This document shows, in pieces, positions 12,537 to 21,231 of a DNA stretch of 22,939 bases. Position 1 is the first letter of the stretch, and every line of letters starts with the position of its first letter. The position numbers were made by a program, and so were the translations under genes. The notes under the pieces are model-generated. The model saw only the letters and a list, made by a program, of their open reading frames with translations. It was not told the origin of the DNA and searched no databases. Source of the stretch: a virus (taxonomy: Duplodnaviria; Heunggongvirae; Uroviricota; Caudoviricetes); IMG/VR virus record IMGVR_UViG_2671181100_000006, positions 1-22,939 of that record. One strand, 5' to 3'.

Positions 12537-13517
12537 ATGAGAGCACTACTAACCCCTGAGATTGCCCCACGCATGGGCGTTGTTCTGCTTCGCCCAGGCG
12601 CTGATCTCATGCCGATGTTCAGGAGAGGGCGGGTACTGATTGAGCCTGCACCGGAAAAATACAGCGACTACGCAACCGGCGCTATCCCTCCCGCCACGCA
12701 GCCACTGGCAGAAGACCCGGTTTTGAAGCCAGTCTTCGAAAACAAAGACGTCATTCTGCGCGCGGGTGGTATCAGCTCGCTGGAGGCCGAGCTGGAGCGT
12801 CGTTTTGAATGCCAGTATCCGCATGGCTCGTGGCACAGCGAAAATTTTACGCTGTTCCGGCATGAGCCTGGCAGCATCCGCCTTTGCTGGGCCTGCGATA
12901 ACCTGGTGCGTGATCAGTACACAGAGACGCTGGCAGGCATTGCGCGTGGGAACCTGGTATCCTGGTTGATAACGGTCATCCGCTCACAGCTGGGGTTCAA
13001 CGAAGACCATCAACTGACGATCCCAGAGTTGTGCTGGTGGCTGGTAATAAACAATCTGGCGCACGTCATCCCTGAATCGCTGGCCCGGAAAGCCCTGCGA
13101 TTGCCGGAAATAAAGCATCAACCGGTGATGAAGGAGAGCGATATTGTGCCGGAGCCAGCGGCGAGCGAAGTGGTGCAGAAAAAGATTCTCGGTCTTCGCG
13201 TAGATCCTGAAACGCCGGAATCATTTATGCTGCGACCAAAGCGCCGCCGCTGGGTAAACGAGAGCTGGACGCGCTGGGTTAAGTCTCAGTCGTGTGTCTG
13301 CTGTAACAAACAAGCAGATGATCCCCATCACCTGATAGGCCACGGACAAGGTGGAATGGGAACAAAAGCGCATGACCTGTTTGTGTTGCCGCTTTGCAGA
13401 GCGCATCACGACGAGTTGCACGCTGACACCGTGGCATTTGAGGAGAAGCACGGCTCACAGCTGGAGCTGCTGTTTCGATTTCTGGATCGTTCGCTGGCAA
13501 TTAGCGTGCTGGCATAG
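12537..13517 (+). CDS. Phage protein with C-terminal DUF968-like / HNH-like Cys-His motif
   Basis: C-terminus CVCCNKQADDPHHLIGHGQGGMGTKAHDLFVLPLCRAHHDELH resembles HNH/DUF968 zinc-binding regions common in lambdoid nin regions. Assignment from memory. Confidence 0.5.
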   Translation: MRALLTPEIAPRMGVVLLRPGADLMPMFRRGRVLIEPAPEKYSDYATGAIPPATQPLAEDPVLKPVFENKDVILRAGGISSLEAELERRFECQYPHGSWHSENFTLFRHEPGSIRLCWACDNLVRDQYTETLAGIARGNLVSWLITVIRSQLGFNEDHQLTIPELCWWLVINNLAHVIPESLARKALRLPEIKHQPVMKESDIVPEPAASEVVQKKILGLRVDPETPESFMLRPKRRRWVNESWTRWVKSQSCVCCNKQADDPHHLIGHGQGGMGTKAHDLFVLPLCRAHHDELHADTVAFEEKHGSQLELLFRFLDRSLAISVLA

Positions 13518-13530
13518 TGGAGAACGCATA

Positions 13531-14109
13531 ATGATTAACCCGTCCGAGGTTGGAAAAGCTGGTGAAATGGTCAGGCTGAAAACGCTGGAGGCCATCTGGA
13601 TTCAGGGGAAGCTGCGCATGTGGGGCCGCTGGTCTTACATCGGCGGCGGTAGTGGCGGCAATATGTTTAACCAGTTACTGGCTTCCGGGAAAGTCACTAA
13701 AACAGCCATCAACGAAGCATTACGCCGGATGAAGAAGTCCGGCATCTCGAAGCCAGAGCTTGAGGCGTTTTTTCGTGAAATACTCGCGGGGAAAAACAAA
13801 AGCGGCCTGGCCTTCTGTACAGACGATGAAGGACTGCTGATTGATAAGGTACTGGGGGCAGTCCTCATTACGGGTGGTCATAAAGAGCTATACCACCTGC
13901 TGGTGGAGCATTACCGGTTACGGAAGAGCAAACGCCGCATAGCGGAAGAGCTCTATGAAAAGCATCCAGACTGGTGCTTTATGACATGCAGACGAAGAGT
14001 TGATACATGGCTAAGTTTGGCAGAATCGATGCTGTACGCACCAATGTGTGACGCATTCGGCACAAATGGCGACAGATTTTACTTGCAAAGTGAGCCAGAA
14101 ACTGCTTGA
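13531..14109 (+). CDS. Q: Late-gene antiterminator Q (phage 82-type family)
   Basis: Start placed at the ATG (MINPSEV...) with GGAG RBS, in frame with the longer track ORF. Motif KLRMWGRW resembles the ERWGAW signature of phage 82-type Q proteins. Followed by a terminator. Confidence 0.65.
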   Translation: MINPSEVGKAGEMVRLKTLEAIWIQGKLRMWGRWSYIGGGSGGNMFNQLLASGKVTKTAINEALRRMKKSGISKPELEAFFREILAGKNKSGLAFCTDDEGLLIDKVLGAVLITGGHKELYHLLVEHYRLRKSKRRIAEELYEKHPDWCFMTCRRRVDTWLSLAESMLYAPMCDAFGTNGDRFYLQSEPETA

Positions 14110-14665: not shown

Positions 14666-15052
14666 ATGTCCGAACCAATAACCGGCACAGGCTTAGCTGG
14701 TGGCGCTTTAACTGGGGCGAGTGTTTACGGGCTATTAACCGGTACAGACTACGGTGTTGTGTTCGGGGCATTTGCTGGTTCCGTCTTTTATATAGCGACA
14801 GCGGCCGATTTGAGCGCCCCACGACGGATGGCATATTTCGTTGTGTCCTATATTGCTGGAGTTCTGTGCTCCGGGCTGGTCGGTTCTAAGTTATCCGACC
14901 TTACCGGGTACAACGATAAGCCTCTGGATGCAATTGGTGCCGTAATCATTTCGGCATTGGCCGTAAAAATACTCACCTTCCTGAACAATCAGGATATTGG
15001 CTCGCTGGTGGCGCTAATAACGCGCCGGGGAGGTTCCGGTGGTACTAAATGA
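14666..15052 (+). CDS. Holin (multi-TMD small membrane protein)
   Basis: 128-aa Gly/Ala-rich hydrophobic protein with several predicted TM helices and a charged C-terminus, first gene of the lysis cassette. RBS GAGGGGGA. Confidence 0.6.
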   Translation: MSEPITGTGLAGGALTGASVYGLLTGTDYGVVFGAFAGSVFYIATAADLSAPRRMAYFVVSYIAGVLCSGLVGSKLSDLTGYNDKPLDAIGAVIISALAVKILTFLNNQDIGSLVALITRRGGSGGTK

Positions 15053-15320
15053 TCCTACTGCAACCATCAATGCGCTGTTATGTGCTGGTGTCGTTGTTAC
15101 GTTGATGTTCTATCGCCGCAGAGACTCACGTCATCGTAAGTGGGTGTCGCGGCTGGCATGGCTGATAACAGTGATTTACAGCTCTGTGCCGTTGGCGTAT
15201 CTGTGCGGCATCTATCCCTATTCATCATGGCCCACCATTGCGGCCAATATCATGATCCTTGTTGTGCTGCTGAGCGTAAGAGGCAATGTAGCGCGGCTGG
15301 TTGATGCACTGAGGCACTAA
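15039..15320 (+). CDS. Small membrane protein of the lysis cassette (second holin / antiholin-like)
   Basis: 93 aa with three hydrophobic segments. GTG start preceded by GGGAGG. Overlaps the holin 3' end and its stop overlaps the endolysin start. Confidence 0.5.
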   Translation: MVLNDPTATINALLCAGVVVTLMFYRRRDSRHRKWVSRLAWLITVIYSSVPLAYLCGIYPYSSWPTIAANIMILVVLLSVRGNVARLVDALRH

Positions 15321-15949
15321 TGAATCAAACACAATTCCAGAAGGCGGCTGGTATCAGCGCCGGGTTAGCTGCGCGCTGGTATCCGCATATTACAGCTGCG
15401 ATGAAAGAGTTCGGCATCACTGCTCCACTCGATCAGGCAATGTTCATTGCTCAATGCGGCCATGAAAGCCTCGGTTTTAACAGGGTGGTGGAGAATTTCA
15501 ACTACAGCATCGCCGGGCTTGCTGATTTTGTTCGTTACGGCAGGTTAACGCAGGATCAGGCCAATTCCCTCGGGCGTAGCCAGTCGGAAACAGTGTTACC
15601 TCTGGAGCGCCAGCGGGCTATCGCCAACATTGTCTATAGCAAGCGGTTGGGTAACAACAGGGCAACTGATGGATGGGCTTATCGTGGGCGCGGACTTATT
15701 CAAATAACCGGATTGTCAAATTACCGGGACTGCGGTAACGGGCTGAAGGTTGATCTAGTGGCACAGCCAGAATTACTGGAGCAGTCCTCGTACGCGGCCC
15801 GTAGTGCAGCGTGGTTCTATGTCTCAAAAGGTTGCTTGAAATATCCGGGTGAGCTTGTCCGGGTTACTCAGATTATCAACGGCGGACAAAACGGGATTAA
15901 TAACCGGCGCGCTCGCTTCCTGAAAGCAAAATCGGTACTGGTGGTGTGA
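15320..15949 (+). CDS. Endolysin, glycoside hydrolase family 19 (chitinase-like lysozyme)
   Basis: GH19 signature ...WAYRGRGLIQITGLSNYRDCG... and catalytic-region CGHESLGF. Sits between the holin genes and the spanins. Confidence 0.75.
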   Translation: MNQTQFQKAAGISAGLAARWYPHITAAMKEFGITAPLDQAMFIAQCGHESLGFNRVVENFNYSIAGLADFVRYGRLTQDQANSLGRSQSETVLPLERQRAIANIVYSKRLGNNRATDGWAYRGRGLIQITGLSNYRDCGNGLKVDLVAQPELLEQSSYAARSAAWFYVSKGCLKYPGELVRVTQIINGGQNGINNRRARFLKAKSVLVV

Positions 15950-16227
15950 TCATGGGAATCGAAGCTATCGCGGGGCTGGTGGTTGTCATCCTGGGTGCTA
16001 TCGCTGGCGCGTTCGGCATCGGCCATGCTCGCGGGACCAGTAAGGCAGAAGCCAAAGCCGATCAGCAGCGTACCGAAGAGAACGCCGCCGCCACCGTCGC
16101 CGCGGCAGAACGTAAGGCGGAAGTTGTGAAAGAGGCAAGCGATGTACAGCAAACCGTTAGTCATATGCCTGATGACGATGTTGATCGCGAGCTGCGCGAA
16201 AAGTTTACCCGCCCCGGTAGTCGTTGA
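15946..16227 (+). CDS. i-spanin (Rz-like inner-membrane spanin subunit)
   Basis: N-terminal TM segment (IAGLVVVILGAIAGAFGI) followed by a charged periplasmic domain. Start is GTG at 15946 or ATG at 15952. Confidence 0.6.
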   Translation: MIMGIEAIAGLVVVILGAIAGAFGIGHARGTSKAEAKADQQRTEENAAATVAAAERKAEVVKEASDVQQTVSHMPDDDVDRELREKFTRPGSR

Positions 16228-16357
16228 TACGGCCTGCAGCTGGGTGAGGGTCATCTACCTGACCGACCACGATATTGACGTGCTGGATAAGCAGACCAAG
16301 CGCGACATTCTGGCGCATAACAAAGCAGTGGAAGTCAACTGCCAGAAAGGGAAGTGA
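16142..16357 (+). CDS. o-spanin (Rz1-like outer-membrane lipoprotein), overlapping the i-spanin in another frame
   Basis: Signal peptide with lipobox (MTMLIASC). Begins inside the i-spanin gene in a different frame and extends beyond it. Confidence 0.6.
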   Translation: MYSKPLVICLMTMLIASCAKSLPAPVVVDTACSWVRVIYLTDHDIDVLDKQTKRDILAHNKAVEVNCQKGK

Positions 16358-16682: not shown

Positions 16683-16708
16683 AAGGTCGCCAATGGCGGC
16701 CTTTTTTA
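16683..16708 (+). terminator. Rho-independent terminator
   Basis: AAGGTCGCC-aat-GGCGGCCTT (one G-U wobble) followed by TTTTTT. Confidence 0.5.
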
Positions 16709-16731: not shown

Positions 16732-16926
16732 ATGTTAACAGTAAAAGTAATGTCACCAGATGGTGGCGAAGAAATCCATTGCGGCCTGAGCGTTGGTTTC
16801 AACCCCAATCAGCAGAGTATCGCAGTGTCGGGAATGGACCAGAACGTTTTCCTGAAGCAGGGAGAAGTGGCGTACGTGATGAACGCAAACGGAAAGACCA
16901 TTTCCCGTTACGAGCACTTGACCTGA
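16732..16926 (+). CDS. Hypothetical small protein (64 aa)
   Basis: Start at the internal ATG (MLTVKVMSPDGG...) preceded by AGGAG; the longer track ORF would run through the terminator. Confidence 0.5.
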   Translation: MLTVKVMSPDGGEEIHCGLSVGFNPNQQSIAVSGMDQNVFLKQGEVAYVMNANGKTISRYEHLT

Positions 16927-17264
16927 CAATAAGCAGCACTGGCGCCCTTCATTGAAGGGCATCAATAATGATAAACCGAAGCATCTGCCTTAAGTGTTAT
17001 AAAAAACCCCGTGGAGGAAATCCCAAAGCTACGGGGTGCTGTACAGCCAGCCAATGACTGATTGTAGCCACGAAGTTGGTTTATTTTCTACTGGTTGAGA
17101 ATAAAACTGAGAGCCAGGAAGGCTTGAGAGTGGCTCATTCATGAGCTCACGGGTAGAACGGCAGACTTTGTCATGGCAGAGCAAAGTTATAAGTTAGTTT
17201 AGGTAACATTTCGGATATAACAAGCGTAGCGGGGTATTCCTAATAATGGAGCACCGCAGCTAAA

Positions 17265-17303
17265 GCATTACAGGAGCCATTCACCGAGTGGCTTCGATAA
17301 TGC
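17265..17303. repeat. Copy 1 of a ~40-bp nested stem-loop element (GCATTACAG-gAGCCAttcaccgagTGGCTtc-GATAATGC)
   Basis: Outer inverted repeat GCATTA/TAATGC; inner stem AGCCA/TGGCT; loop TTCACCGAG. Lies 25 nt upstream of the ATG at 17329. Confidence 0.6.
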
Positions 17304-17328
17304 TCCCCACATCGCACAGAGGTAAGAC

Positions 17329-17574
17329 ATGGCAGAGATCACCGTATCCGAACAAATCCGCCTGGATATCATCAAAAAAGTTAACTACGACACCGCAGCG
17401 GCCAAGCTGGCCATTGACTGGGTAGGGGACAGCTATCTGAAGTCTGAGCTATTCGCAGACTCTTTCGATCGTGTTTTCACGGAAAGCGAGATTGTCTCGA
17501 AGACCCGTAAGGCCATCCAGGAAGCGACCGAAGCGCTGGCGCTGTTTGATACCAGCGCAGAGCAGGCGAGCTAA
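17329..17574 (+). CDS. Hypothetical protein (81 aa)
   Basis: RBS GAGGT. Flanked on both sides by copies of the stem-loop element. Confidence 0.6.
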   Translation: MAEITVSEQIRLDIIKKVNYDTAAAKLAIDWVGDSYLKSELFADSFDRVFTESEIVSKTRKAIQEATEALALFDTSAEQAS

Positions 17575-17575
17575 G

Positions 17576-17614
17576 GCATTACAGCAGGCATTCACTGAGT
17601 GCCTGTGATAATGC
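17576..17614. repeat. Copy 2 of the stem-loop element (GCATTACAGc-AGGCAttcactgagTGCCTg-TGATAATGC)
   Basis: Same outer inverted repeat. Inner stem is AGGCA/TGCCT, a compensatory G-C swap relative to copy 1 that preserves pairing. Begins right after the stop codon of the 17329-17574 gene. Confidence 0.6.
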
Positions 17615-18060: not shown

Positions 18061-18079
18061 ACATTTCAGTCAAATGATA

Positions 18080-18104
18080 ACCTCGCTTTGGCGGGGTTTT
18101 TTTA
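18080..18104 (+). terminator. Rho-independent terminator
   Basis: CCTCGC-tttg-GCGGGG (one G-U wobble) followed by T8. Confidence 0.6.
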
Positions 18105-18317: not shown

Positions 18318-18360
18318 GCATTACAGAAGCCCTTCACATTGCGAGGAGCTTTGATAATGC
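18318..18360. repeat. Copy 3 of the stem-loop element (GCATTACAG-AAGCCCttcacattgcgagGAGCTTt-GATAATGC), more diverged
   Basis: Same outer GCATTACAG...GATAATGC arms. Inner region has an insertion and one stem mismatch. Begins 7 nt after the stop of the 18126-18311 gene. Confidence 0.5.
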
Positions 18361-18498
18361 GAATGAATATCATTATCGATGGATGGAAGGGGGTGTGTAG
18401 ACGTTTAGATGTCTAAATGTCTACATGGTCGATTTCTCCTGGCAATGTGCAAATGATAGTCATTATCATTTAAGGGTCCTCCCAGAGGGGGAGGTTAC

Positions 18499-18520
18499 CA
18501 CGGGGCGGCGGACTCGCGGA
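18499..18520. other. Candidate cosN (cohesive-end site); predicted 12-nt cohesive end GGGCGGCGGACT at 18503-18514
   Basis: CACGGGGCGGCGGACTCGCGG matches the phage lambda cosN region as I recall it (TACGGGGCGGCGACCTCGCGG) at 18 of 21 positions. Lies ~115 bp upstream of the Nu1-like small terminase gene, the lambda arrangement. Confidence 0.55.
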
Positions 18521-18631
18521 AAACGGCTAGTTTTCATTTTTCATAGTCATCATCATCATGTGCACAGGTTATTGATTTTCCAGATGTCGGATTTTCAATG
18601 ATGTCGAATCGTATAAAAAGTGTTCACCATC

Positions 18632-19123
18632 ATGGATCAGGAAATCGCTACTTTAAAACTCAATATCAACCAGCTTGCCGGGATTACTGGCGTACACCGG
18701 CAGACCGTCGCTACCAGGCTAAAAAATGTCAGTCCCGCCCAGGGAAGCAACAGCAAACTTAAGTTGTATCTTGTCACCGATATTCTGACAGAATTAATGA
18801 TCCCGACGGTTTCCTCATCGAATCTTGAAGAGATGACACCCCCTGATCGCCTCGCTCACTGGAAAGCAGAAAACGAGCGGTTGAAATTTGAAGTAGATAC
18901 CAAACAACTTATCCCCGCCGAAGACGTCGCACGTGAATTTTCAATGATGGCGAAAGCCGTCGTCATGGTACTTGAAACACTTCCGGACATTCTTGAGCGC
19001 GACTGTGCACTTACGCCGGTTGCGGTATCACGCGTGCAAAGCGTGATTGATGACCTGCGCGATCAGGTTGCCCAAAAAGTAATGGACGCTGAACCAGAGG
19101 AGGATGAGCCAGAGGAGGACTGA
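18632..19123 (+). CDS. Terminase small subunit (lambda Nu1-like, N-terminal winged HTH)
   Basis: N-terminus LKLNINQLAGITGVHRQTVATRL... parallels lambda Nu1 (VNKKQLADIFGASIRTIQNW...); acidic C-terminus. Start is ATG at 18632 or GTG at 18620. Stop overlaps the large-subunit start (ATGA). Confidence 0.7.
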   Translation: MDQEIATLKLNINQLAGITGVHRQTVATRLKNVSPAQGSNSKLKLYLVTDILTELMIPTVSSSNLEEMTPPDRLAHWKAENERLKFEVDTKQLIPAEDVAREFSMMAKAVVMVLETLPDILERDCALTPVAVSRVQSVIDDLRDQVAQKVMDAEPEEDEPEED

Positions 19124-21231
19124 TGACAAAACGGGCATCTGCCAGGGGGATACGCCGCGATGTCTCCGGTATTCTTCGTGCCCCACGTCGTATGCAGGTG
19201 GCCGATGCGGTCAGCTCATATATGCGTGTGCCGATGGGGGCGGGTAACTCCGTACCATGGGACCCCAATCTGGCCCCTTATATTATTGAGCCGATGAATT
19301 GTCTGGCATCCCGTGAATATGATGCGGTGGTGTTTGTCGGACCGGCCCGAACCGGGAAAACGATTGGCCTGATTGATGGCTGGATTGTCTACAACATCGT
19401 TTGTGATCCCGCTGACATGCTGGTTATTCAGGTCTCCGAAGAGAAAGCGCGTGAACATTCCAAGAAACGCCTCGATCGCACATTCCGGTGTAGTCCGGAA
19501 GTAAAATCGCGACTCAGTCCGCGTCGTAACGACAATAACGTTCACGACCGCACCTTCCGGGCCGGTAACTATCTCAAACTGGGCTGGCCGTCAGTCAACA
19601 TTATGTCGTCGTCAGACTATAAAAGCGTGGCGTTGACTGACTATGACCGCTTTCCTGAAGATATCGACGGGGAAGGTGATGCATTTTCCCTGGGTTCGAA
19701 ACGTACCACTACGTTTATGTCCAGCGGCATGACTCTGGTTGAGAGTTCACCTGGCCGAGATATTCGTGACACGAAATGGCGACCAAACACCGCACATGAG
19801 GCACCGCCGACTACCGGCATATTATCGTTGTTTAATCGTGGTGACCGCCGCCGCCTTTACTGGCCGTGTCCGCATTGCGGAGAATATTTTCAGCCGGAGG
19901 TAGCCAATATGACGGGCTACCGGGATTCCCTTGATCCCGTTGTGGCAAGTGAGTCTGCATATCTCCAGTGCCCGGCCTGCAAAGGCAGGATCACCGCAGA
20001 TATGAAACGTGAACTGAATATCCGCCATGTCTGGTTACGCGATGGAGAAAAAATAGATCGTGATGGCAACAGATTTGGGGAGCCGCGGCGATCACGCATC
20101 GCTTCATTCTGGATGGAGGGGCCTGCGGCTGCATATCAGACATGGTCGCAGATGATATACAAATTCCTGACTGCTGAGCAGGAATATGAGTCCACCCAGA
20201 GTGAAGAGACGCTGAAAACGGTAGTTAATACCGACTTTGGTCGGCCTTATCTACCCCGAGCCAGTCTCGAACAACGTAAGAGTGAGCTGCTCGAACGACG
20301 CGCTGAAGACGTGCCGAAGCGATCTGTACCAGATGGTGTGCTCTTTATGACTGCAACCGTTGATGTGCAGGGCGGTAAATCCCGTCGTTTCGTGGTTCAG
20401 GTGACTGGCTACGGTGAGCAGGGTGAGAGATGGCTGGTAGATCGCTACAACATCCGCCAGTCTCTGCGGGCAAACGAGCACGGTGAATGTTACTCCATCG
20501 ATCCGGCAAGTTACCCGGAAGACTGGGATTTACTTTTGTCTGACGTGTTCGAAAAGTCATGGCCCTTAGCGAGTAACCCGTCAAAACGCATGCGGCTCAT
20601 GGCGATGGCTGTCGATTCCGGCGGTGAGGATGGTGTCACCGATAACGCATATAAGTTCTGGCGTAAGTGCCGCCGGGATGGGCTTGGTAAAAAGATTTTC
20701 CTCTTCAAGGGCGACAGTGTCCGACGCTCAAAACTAATTACCCGAACATTTCCTGATAACACTGACAGATCAACTCGCCGGGCAAAAGCCGCTGGCGATG
20801 TGCCGCTTTACCTTCTTCAGACTGATGCGCTGAAAGATCAGGTGAATAACGCCCTGTGGCGAGAATCACCCGGCCCGAACTATGTGCATTTCCCTAAATG
20901 GCTCGGCAGCTGGTTTTACGATGAGCTGACCTATGAGGAACGTTCACCCGATGGAAAATGGAGCAAACCGGGCCGAGGTCCGAATGAAGCTTTCGATCTA
21001 CTCGTTTATGCCGATGCGCTGGCCATATTGCACGGATACGAAAAGATCAAATGGCCGGATGCGCCTGAATGGGCGAGGCGGACAACGTGGATCGAAGAAA
21101 GCACGCCGGAAACTGGCGAAGTGTCACCCACGTTATCAGCAAAAACGACCCATAGCAGAAAAAAACGGAAGGCAAATAAGCCGGATGTTGAAAACAATCC
21201 GTGGACTACATCATCAGGAGGCTGGGTGTGA
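19123..21231 (+). CDS. Terminase large subunit (lambda GpA-like)
   Basis: 702 aa. Recognisable similarity to lambda gpA: WPCPHCGEYF vs ACPHCGEEQY, VNTDFG vs VNTTLG, NEAFDLLVYADALA vs NEALDCFVYALAAL. RBS GAGGAGG. Confidence 0.9.
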   Translation: MTKRASARGIRRDVSGILRAPRRMQVADAVSSYMRVPMGAGNSVPWDPNLAPYIIEPMNCLASREYDAVVFVGPARTGKTIGLIDGWIVYNIVCDPADMLVIQVSEEKAREHSKKRLDRTFRCSPEVKSRLSPRRNDNNVHDRTFRAGNYLKLGWPSVNIMSSSDYKSVALTDYDRFPEDIDGEGDAFSLGSKRTTTFMSSGMTLVESSPGRDIRDTKWRPNTAHEAPPTTGILSLFNRGDRRRLYWPCPHCGEYFQPEVANMTGYRDSLDPVVASESAYLQCPACKGRITADMKRELNIRHVWLRDGEKIDRDGNRFGEPRRSRIASFWMEGPAAAYQTWSQMIYKFLTAEQEYESTQSEETLKTVVNTDFGRPYLPRASLEQRKSELLERRAEDVPKRSVPDGVLFMTATVDVQGGKSRRFVVQVTGYGEQGERWLVDRYNIRQSLRANEHGECYSIDPASYPEDWDLLLSDVFEKSWPLASNPSKRMRLMAMAVDSGGEDGVTDNAYKFWRKCRRDGLGKKIFLFKGDSVRRSKLITRTFPDNTDRSTRRAKAAGDVPLYLLQTDALKDQVNNALWRESPGPNYVHFPKWLGSWFYDELTYEERSPDGKWSKPGRGPNEAFDLLVYADALAILHGYEKIKWPDAPEWARRTTWIEESTPETGEVSPTLSAKTTHSRKKRKANKPDVENNPWTTSSGGWV

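Follow-up and report, generated by a model that had tools for sequence, protein, structure and literature searches.

Prophages carry trans-acting small RNAs as accessory "moron" units, among them DicF of Qin and the anti-sRNAs AsxR and AgvB of EHEC Stx phages. A moron, in the concept of Juhala and Hendrix, is an additional gene, equipped with a promoter and a terminator of its own, that is situated between genes of the late operon. The bor gene of lambda is such a moron; it is encoded on the opposite strand, in the stretch from the lysis genes to cos. Another type of phage RNA, represented by lambda oop and P22 sar, overlaps a specific coding gene on the opposite strand and regulates it.

The window analyzed here, a stretch of 22,939 nucleotides taken as a whole, covers the late region of a lambdoid prophage of the Klebsiella type. 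It contains a Q-like antiterminator (13351–14109), two holins followed by an endolysin and the Rz/Rz1 spanins (14666–16357), and a DUF1441 small terminase with a lambda-gpA-type large terminase (18620–21231). The DUF1441/gpA terminase genes start about 105 nt downstream of a cos-like sequence, GGGGCGGCGGACTC, at 18502–18515. This sequence is probably the cos site, and it resembles the lambda cohesive-end sequence, GGGCGGCGACCT. Several small accessory genes are found between the spanins and the cos-like sequence; in lambdoid phages, the stretch from the spanins to cos and the terminase is the usual accessory-gene zone. The interval studied here, 16927–17264, is situated in this zone, between the phrog_3909 gene (16732–16926, plus strand) and the DUF2560 gene (17329–17574).

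Two other features of the late operon were observed around the interval. Strong plus-strand intrinsic terminators occur at 16683–16703, after the phrog_4298 gene, and at 18079–18098, after a gene for a BamE-like lipoprotein. Accessory genes with terminators of their own suggest independent transcription units that are read through by the Q-modified polymerase. Farther downstream, two Fur-box-like sites (18359–18377, minus strand, and 18449–18467, plus strand) each have 3 mismatches to GATAATGATAATCATTATC, where 0.01 such sites are expected by chance. The pair flanks a 14-nt palindrome (18396–18425) between the third stem-loop copy described below and the cos-like sequence, and the annotation of phi80 lists a "putative Fur-regulated protein" in the equivalent zone.

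Our main reading takes the interior of the interval as a non-coding module of the moron type, coding for one or two small RNAs that run antisense to the late operon, and from the conserved signals in the sequence we put its probability at about 0.55. The module, at ~16999–17233, would be self-contained and transcribed from the minus strand, against the Q-dependent late operon. It has a GC content of 45%, compared with 49% for the window. Like the prophage small RNAs DicF and AsxR/AgvB, it is a short non-coding unit in a lambdoid accessory region that is distributed patchily among related phages, with a predicted promoter, a predicted Rho-independent terminator followed by at least 5–6 U, and a conserved 5′ or loop stretch that might act as a seed. 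It differs from them in its lack of similarity to Rfam families, in its two tandem units, and in a host range that is essentially Klebsiella. With lambdoid morons such as bor it shares the location between the spanins and cos, the orientation opposite to the late operon, promoter- and terminator-like signals of its own, and presence or absence between collinear phages, but its cargo is non-coding and not a protein gene. The predicted RNAs of ~55–90 nt with an intrinsic terminator, running against the flow of a phage operon, are also reminiscent of oop and sar. In contrast to those RNAs, nothing is encoded opposite the module, so a purely cis-antisense role is unlikely. Viewed by analogy, the module is conceptually unsurprising, being akin to known prophage small RNAs and to classical morons.

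Stem-loop elements at the edges of the interval

An earlier reading of the window, made from the sequence alone (the sequence-only reading), had pointed to two hairpins in the interval, and both exist at slightly different places. Hairpin 1, GCCCTTC-ATT-GAAGGGC, is at 16944–16960 and not at 16951–16967. Hairpin 2, CCCCGT...ACGGGG, occupies 17007–17036 with an interior of 18 nt, instead of 17005–17036 with a 20-nt loop. Perfect 6-bp hairpins number 7 in the interval; shuffled sequences have 1.3 on average, and 0.6% of them reach 7. The two hairpins are different things: hairpin 1 is probably part of a cassette-boundary stem-loop, and hairpin 2 is a terminator-like structure of the opposite strand.

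The boundary stem-loop is defined by an outer stem, GCATTA/TAATGC, around an inner hairpin, located just after a stop codon. This element, GCATTACAG-N-GATAATGC, occurs in three exact copies in the window (17265–17303, 17576–17614, and 18318–18360), where none is expected by chance. The stem-loops of the window are on the strand of the late operon, each 1–7 nt past the stop codon of a small accessory gene. A probable fourth copy, diverged, at 16933–16971 (plus strand, repeat families D1 and I6) contains hairpin 1 and begins 7 nt past the stop codon of the phrog_3909 gene. It retains the inner hairpin and the position; its outer stem has degenerated (GCAGCA...AATAATGA), and its fold z-score is −2.5. 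At the orthologous position, just past the stop codon of the same upstream gene, the stem-loop is intact in three relatives (L001, L005, and L006), which points to hairpin 1 as a diverged stem-loop copy. Hairpin 1 would thus belong to the cassette of the upstream gene, and it lies outside the non-coding module.

The right boundary of the interval is formed by 15 nt, GAGCACCGCAGCTAA, together with stem-loop copy 1, which has a fold z-score of −6.9. The stem-loop and the ~15 nt upstream of it (GAGCAnnnnAGCTAA) recur at the 3′ end of the DUF2560 gene. The resemblance between the sequence before copy 1 and the stop-codon context of copy 2, AGCTAA(A/G)GCATTACAG, to which the sequence-only reading had drawn attention, is real and is part of a 55-nt plus-strand repeat: 17249–17303 is 80% identical to 17560–17614, which consists of the DUF2560 3′ end and stem-loop copy 2. 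What the interval shares with the stem-loop element is thus confined to its edges, where hairpin 1 is probably a diverged copy, the end of the interval is another copy, and the duplicated stop-codon context is part of the element, whereas the conserved core bears no relation to it.

Among the loci that we fetched, about 50 contain one to three copies of the element. It is found after rha in phi80 (L128, 2300–2338) and also in mEp390 and ZF40. In phages that lack the module, homology to the window starts precisely at the 5′ boundary of stem-loop copy 1, indicating that the stem-loops mark module junctions. The phages 733R5, KPP5665-2, and phi6.3 are of this kind, having the DUF2560 cassette without the module and homology that starts at the stem-loop. 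The stem-loops behave as if they were a cassette junction or a recombination hotspot among phages with different cargo. The flanks of the module vary by locus, with stem-loops on both sides or with an unrelated gene whose stop codon directly adjoins the module, and in one subfamily (the L004 type) the module is present without flanking stem-loops.

Distribution of the conserved core

The conserved non-coding core, ~16999–17233 with units A and B on the minus strand, is supported by blastn, a 24-mer scan, and a conservation profile. With 16927–17264 as the query, blastn matches the interior, at 76–98% identity, to three records of Klebsiella phages and to 5 of 5426 E. coli genomes. At least 119 IMG/VR viral contigs contain a 24-mer taken from the interior, and a scan of IMG/VR with an independent anchor in hairpin H2 of unit A returned nearly the same loci. 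A distant blastn search of PLSDB detected the module in 135 records of plasmids, of which 133 are from Klebsiella. Many of the copies, notably those in plasmid remnants, are near-identical by shared descent, so that these counts overstate the independent support. No gene is annotated beneath the match in the E. coli RefSeq records or in the PLSDB plasmid records among the matches listed.

Two scans of species-representative genomes gave 0 and 1 match, and the single match is probably a mis-binned metagenome-assembled genome. This near-absence indicates that the family is taxonomically narrow. The match in question (L129, JAJUGM010000135.1, bases 49–128) covers the promoter and first-hairpin part of unit A on an 8.4-kb contig binned as Bacteroidota, and the contig is probably mis-binned enterobacterial phage DNA. 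Another record, that of phage KP-Rio/2015 (KX856662, in both GenBank and RefSeq), has bases 1–162 that are 95% identical to 17135–17295 of the window. The start of this record was considered as a physical genome end and rejected, since the phage is T7-like; it is probably a chimeric assembly end instead.

In the two full-module plasmids that we examined, the module is located inside holin/lysozyme prophage remnants flanked by IS elements. The remnants seen on plasmids (L130–L132), with the order holin, lysozyme, hypothetical gene, and module, are flanked by IS903B, IS5, IS110, or IS630 on large Klebsiella plasmids of the IncFIB type; an anti-phage gene, hhe, is a neighbor on one plasmid and higBA on another. 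On the L132 plasmid, unit A alone survives, beside IS110 and unrelated genes. In this commonest plasmid form, for which a count of ~110 was derived from hit numbers with L132 as the copy inspected, the promoter-like site and both hairpins of unit A are kept at ~86% identity, and unit B is without its −35 element and U-tract. When the two units were searched with separate nhmmer models, they were found together in almost all loci. One locus (L071) has unit A only, directly after the spanin gene. These observations hint that unit A is under stronger constraint than unit B.

The module lies between the spanin genes and cos/terminase. Its presence or absence between collinear relatives, its sharp junctions, and the promoter- and terminator-like signals that it appears to carry are the properties by which a moron is recognized, and on these properties it would be classed as one.

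Predicted transcription units on the minus strand

The module contains two tandem promoter-like sites of the sigma-70 type, P1 and P2, each followed by conserved hairpins and a U-tract. In terms of sequence, both sites have hexamers spaced by 16–18 nt, an A at −11, and a T at −7. P1 has the −35-like hexamer TTGTTA (17218–17223, minus strand; column identity 0.98) and the −10-like hexamer TAAACT (17196–17201, minus strand), separated by a 16-nt spacer with an identity of 0.83. The −10 variants TAAACT, TACACT, and TAAAAT all fit TAnnnT, and our own scan finds the hexamer pair in 59 of 64 unique copies. P1 matches 8 of 12 consensus positions in the window, which is below the threshold of the promoter tool; the tool does find P1 in the relative L006.

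Downstream of P1, the predicted 5′ end of RNA A folds into a hairpin, H1 (17164–17188, minus strand), with the loop CUCUGCCAUGA. The H1 sequence is nearly invariant, and because the loci derived from BLAST and from the independent H2 anchor also carry it, the near-invariance is not an artifact of the search key. Between H1 and H2, the stretch GUUCUACCC (17151–17159, minus strand) has an identity of 0.96 next to a linker with 0.66 and is unpaired in the predicted fold, making it a candidate pairing region. H2 (17130–17150, minus strand) has 8 bp and a one-base bulge, with an identity of 0.98 in the stem and 0.90 in the variable loop, and its G-U variants are seen on the minus strand. It is followed by T1 (17100–17124, minus strand), a short hairpin (17112–17124) and a U-rich tract (17100–17107).

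T1 is a possible terminator of RNA A that appears weak in some subfamilies. The terminator tool calls it in L083, and it is clear in the L083 and L047 types; the stem is only 4–5 bp in the type of the window. The hairpin is replaced between subfamilies (AGCC/GGCT, TGGCG/CGCCA, and TGGC/GCCA) and the T-run is retained. The tool does not call T1 as a terminator in L004 or L006, and there is no adjacent hairpin in the L003 and L004 types. RNA A would thus start from P1 near 17190, consist of H1, single-stranded GUUCUACCC, and H2, and end either at a weak T1 (~17100, giving ~90 nt) or after read-through at T2 (~190 nt). Given how unconvincing T1 is in two subfamilies, RNA A may be the longer form that ends at T2.

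Unit B begins with P2, which has the −35-like hexamer TAGAAA (17085–17090, minus strand; identity 0.97), called by the tool scan of the window, and the −10-like hexamer TACAAT (17061–17066, minus strand) after an 18-nt spacer with an identity of 0.72. All five −10 variants (TACAAT, TAAACT, TATACT, TACACT, and TAGAAT) fit TAnnnT, and in our scan 61 of the 64 unique copies retain the hexamer pair. The predicted 5′ part of RNA B (17038–17056, minus strand) contains CAUUGGCUG (17048–17056) and a small hairpin, H4 (17038–17051); the identity is 0.99 for the CAUUGGCUG stretch and 0.68 for the H4 loop. Unit B ends with T2 (16999–17036, minus strand), which is hairpin 2 followed by U6 within 16999–17006. 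P2 would thus produce an RNA B of ~57 nt that starts with CAUUGGCUG, continues into the small hairpin, and ends at T2.

T2 resembles an intrinsic terminator, with a G+C-rich stem that is directly followed by at least 5 U on the transcribed strand. A tract of U5–U8 comes directly after the hairpin on the minus strand in 31 of 31 unique variants, and there is no T-run after the hairpin on the plus strand. The stem has six G-C-rich pairs and a 3-bp extension, with fold energies of −11 to −20 kcal/mol; the identity is 0.97 in the stem and 0.98 in the U-tract. The interior of 18 nt is unusually large, and the tool, with a loop filter of 3–8 nt, missed T2. Neither the open reading frame list of the window nor the annotated relatives have a minus-strand gene flanking the module on either side, so T2 can only terminate a transcript that starts within the module.

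The pattern of conservation follows these features. Conserved blocks coincide with the promoter hexamers (column identity 0.85–0.98), the stems of H2 and T2 (0.97–0.98), and the predicted 5′ ends, and variable blocks coincide with the promoter spacers (0.72–0.83), the loops (0.68–0.90), and the linkers. The candidate single-stranded contact stretches, GUUCUACCC and CAUUGGCUG, have a column identity of 0.96–0.99. The best promoter-like site on the plus strand is kept in 8 of the 64 unique copies, as opposed to 59 and 61 for the two minus-strand sites. RNA structure does not separate the strands in the same way. Consensus folds by RNAalifold are weak on both strands, and single-sequence fold z-scores are about −1.9 for the minus strand and −1 to −2.5 for the plus strand, which is no worse; the counts of G-U and A-C pairs give no decision on the strand. 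Base-pair covariation is absent from the alignment because the helices, which are 94–100% paired, are almost invariant in a family this shallow. The five alignment cells in which both sides of a pair are changed all come from the unrelated row L129.

Rfam 15 gave no match in the window at the gathering score, none in 16927–17264 at E values up to 10, and none in the module of three relatives at E values up to 1; the module is outside every described Rfam family. A scan for tRNA and tmRNA found none in the interval. Possible targets within the window are at chance level, with 40 complementary 9-mers against 33 expected. The H1 loop was considered as an antisense regulator of the DUF2560 start codon, with which it can form a 10-nt pairing in the window (CUCUGCCAUG/CAUGGCAGAG, 17327–17336). 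This candidate was rejected, and the pairing is probably due to chance, because most relatives have CATGTCAGAG in the DUF2560 start region while the H1 loop stays invariant. Searches of the literature for the module sequence, DUF2560, and Klebsiella prophage small RNAs, and of Klebsiella RIL-seq supplements, returned nothing relevant.

Alternative explanations and the significance of the module

The sequence-only reading had proposed that the interval is a decayed duplicate gene or a duplicated cassette. Part of this is borne out in that a cassette boundary is duplicated; the comparison gives no support to a decayed gene, since similarity to DUF2560 by local nucleotide alignment does not extend beyond the last 15 nt (GAGCAnnnnAGCTAA) and the stem-loop. 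The idea of a remnant without present function draws on those 15 nt, which agree with the DUF2560 3′ end at 11 of 15 positions when the stem-loop sets the register (roughly 1e-4 per comparison by our own binomial estimate), and on ATGGCAGAG, which is common to the interval and the DUF2560 start. Against this, the best local alignment of the interval with DUF2560 scores 20, within the range of shuffled sequences (mean 17.7, maximum 27), the best interior match is a 10-mer that shuffled sequences reach as well, and tblastn of six neighboring proteins against the interval found nothing. An intact gene at the orthologous position, which the sequence-only reading had suggested looking for in relatives, is present in 0 of ~130 related loci, and yet the region is strongly conserved; neutral decay would not leave an interior so highly conserved or with such a pattern of conservation. 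Where phages lack the module, moreover, the sequence that precedes stem-loop 1 is unrelated. A decayed remnant is very unlikely and already largely refuted, and as far as these alignments go the duplicated item is a cassette boundary, not a gene. An intact but very small protein is more improbable still. The candidates are MTKSAVLPVSS, from a minus-strand ATG in the invariant H1 loop, and a 51-residue frame with a TTG start (17184–17029, minus strand), which apart from alternative frames overlapping the upstream gene is the only open reading frame of at least 40 residues that touches the interval. Two phage GenBank records do annotate short minus-strand "hypothetical proteins" over the module. 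The H1-loop frame, however, has 11, 17, or 28 codons depending on the subfamily, lacks a Shine-Dalgarno sequence, and has ACG in place of its start codon in the subfamily to which L003, L013, and their relatives belong, and the 51-residue frame is disrupted by frameshifts outside one subfamily (26 of 64 copies). The interval holds no credible open reading frame, in line with the sequence-only reading, which had seen none with a ribosome-binding site: no frame of at least 15 residues on either strand persists in over 55% of the 64 unique copies, and insertions and deletions shift the frames, which is why the annotated "hypothetical proteins" are probably spurious.

Two further explanations accept that the module is functional. 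The promoters and terminators might act by transcription itself, as a convergent antisense insulator that damps, by interference, the read-through from accessory promoters into cos and the terminase during lysogeny. The same promoter and terminator evidence favors this, as does the placement of a module that faces the late operon amid plus-strand accessory genes with terminators of their own. However, H1 and its loop, GUUCUACCC, H2, and CAUUGGCUG, all of which would be transcribed, equal the promoter hexamers in conservation, for which pure interference has no need, and the L132-type plasmid copies (~110 as judged by hit numbers, with L132 as the copy inspected) keep unit A without a late operon; we regard such an insulator as rather improbable. 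A role on the other strand or in the DNA itself, either as a cis element of the plus-strand late transcript (in processing, stability, or antitermination) or as a protein site (in packaging, recombination, or regulation), is unlikely as well. The module does lie within the late transcription unit, its hairpins are strand-symmetric, and the plus strand folds at least as well as the minus strand (z-score −2.5 for 197 nt), but the U/T-runs and promoter hexamers are conserved in the minus-strand sense only. A function in packaging is difficult to reconcile with a module that accompanies lambda-gpA-type terminases as well as P27/HK97-type ones and that is also present in plasmid remnants without cos, and the internal repeats typical of protein-binding arrays are missing from it.

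The reading that we prefer, one or two small RNAs made against the direction of the late operon, would have the RNAs produced in the lysogen, where they would base-pair in trans through the H1 loop, GUUCUACCC, and CAUUGGCUG. A more tentative proposal, which is possible but which we hold with distinctly less confidence, is that the module represents an undescribed family of regulatory RNAs, borne in tandem by prophages and restricted to Klebsiella and its close relatives, that acts from lysogens and plasmid remnants and uses the H1 loop, GUUCUACCC, or CAUUGGCUG to reprogram host genes or to hinder competing phages. If that were true, the preferential retention of unit A (P1-H1-H2) on a number of plasmids estimated at ~110 would reflect selection for an RNA that benefits the host. 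If the RNAs are real, the module would be an unannotated and widespread small RNA locus of Klebsiella prophages that is also present on many large clinical Klebsiella plasmids. It would then enlarge the small group of riboregulators that phages encode and be a concrete candidate for lysogenic conversion at the level of RNA.
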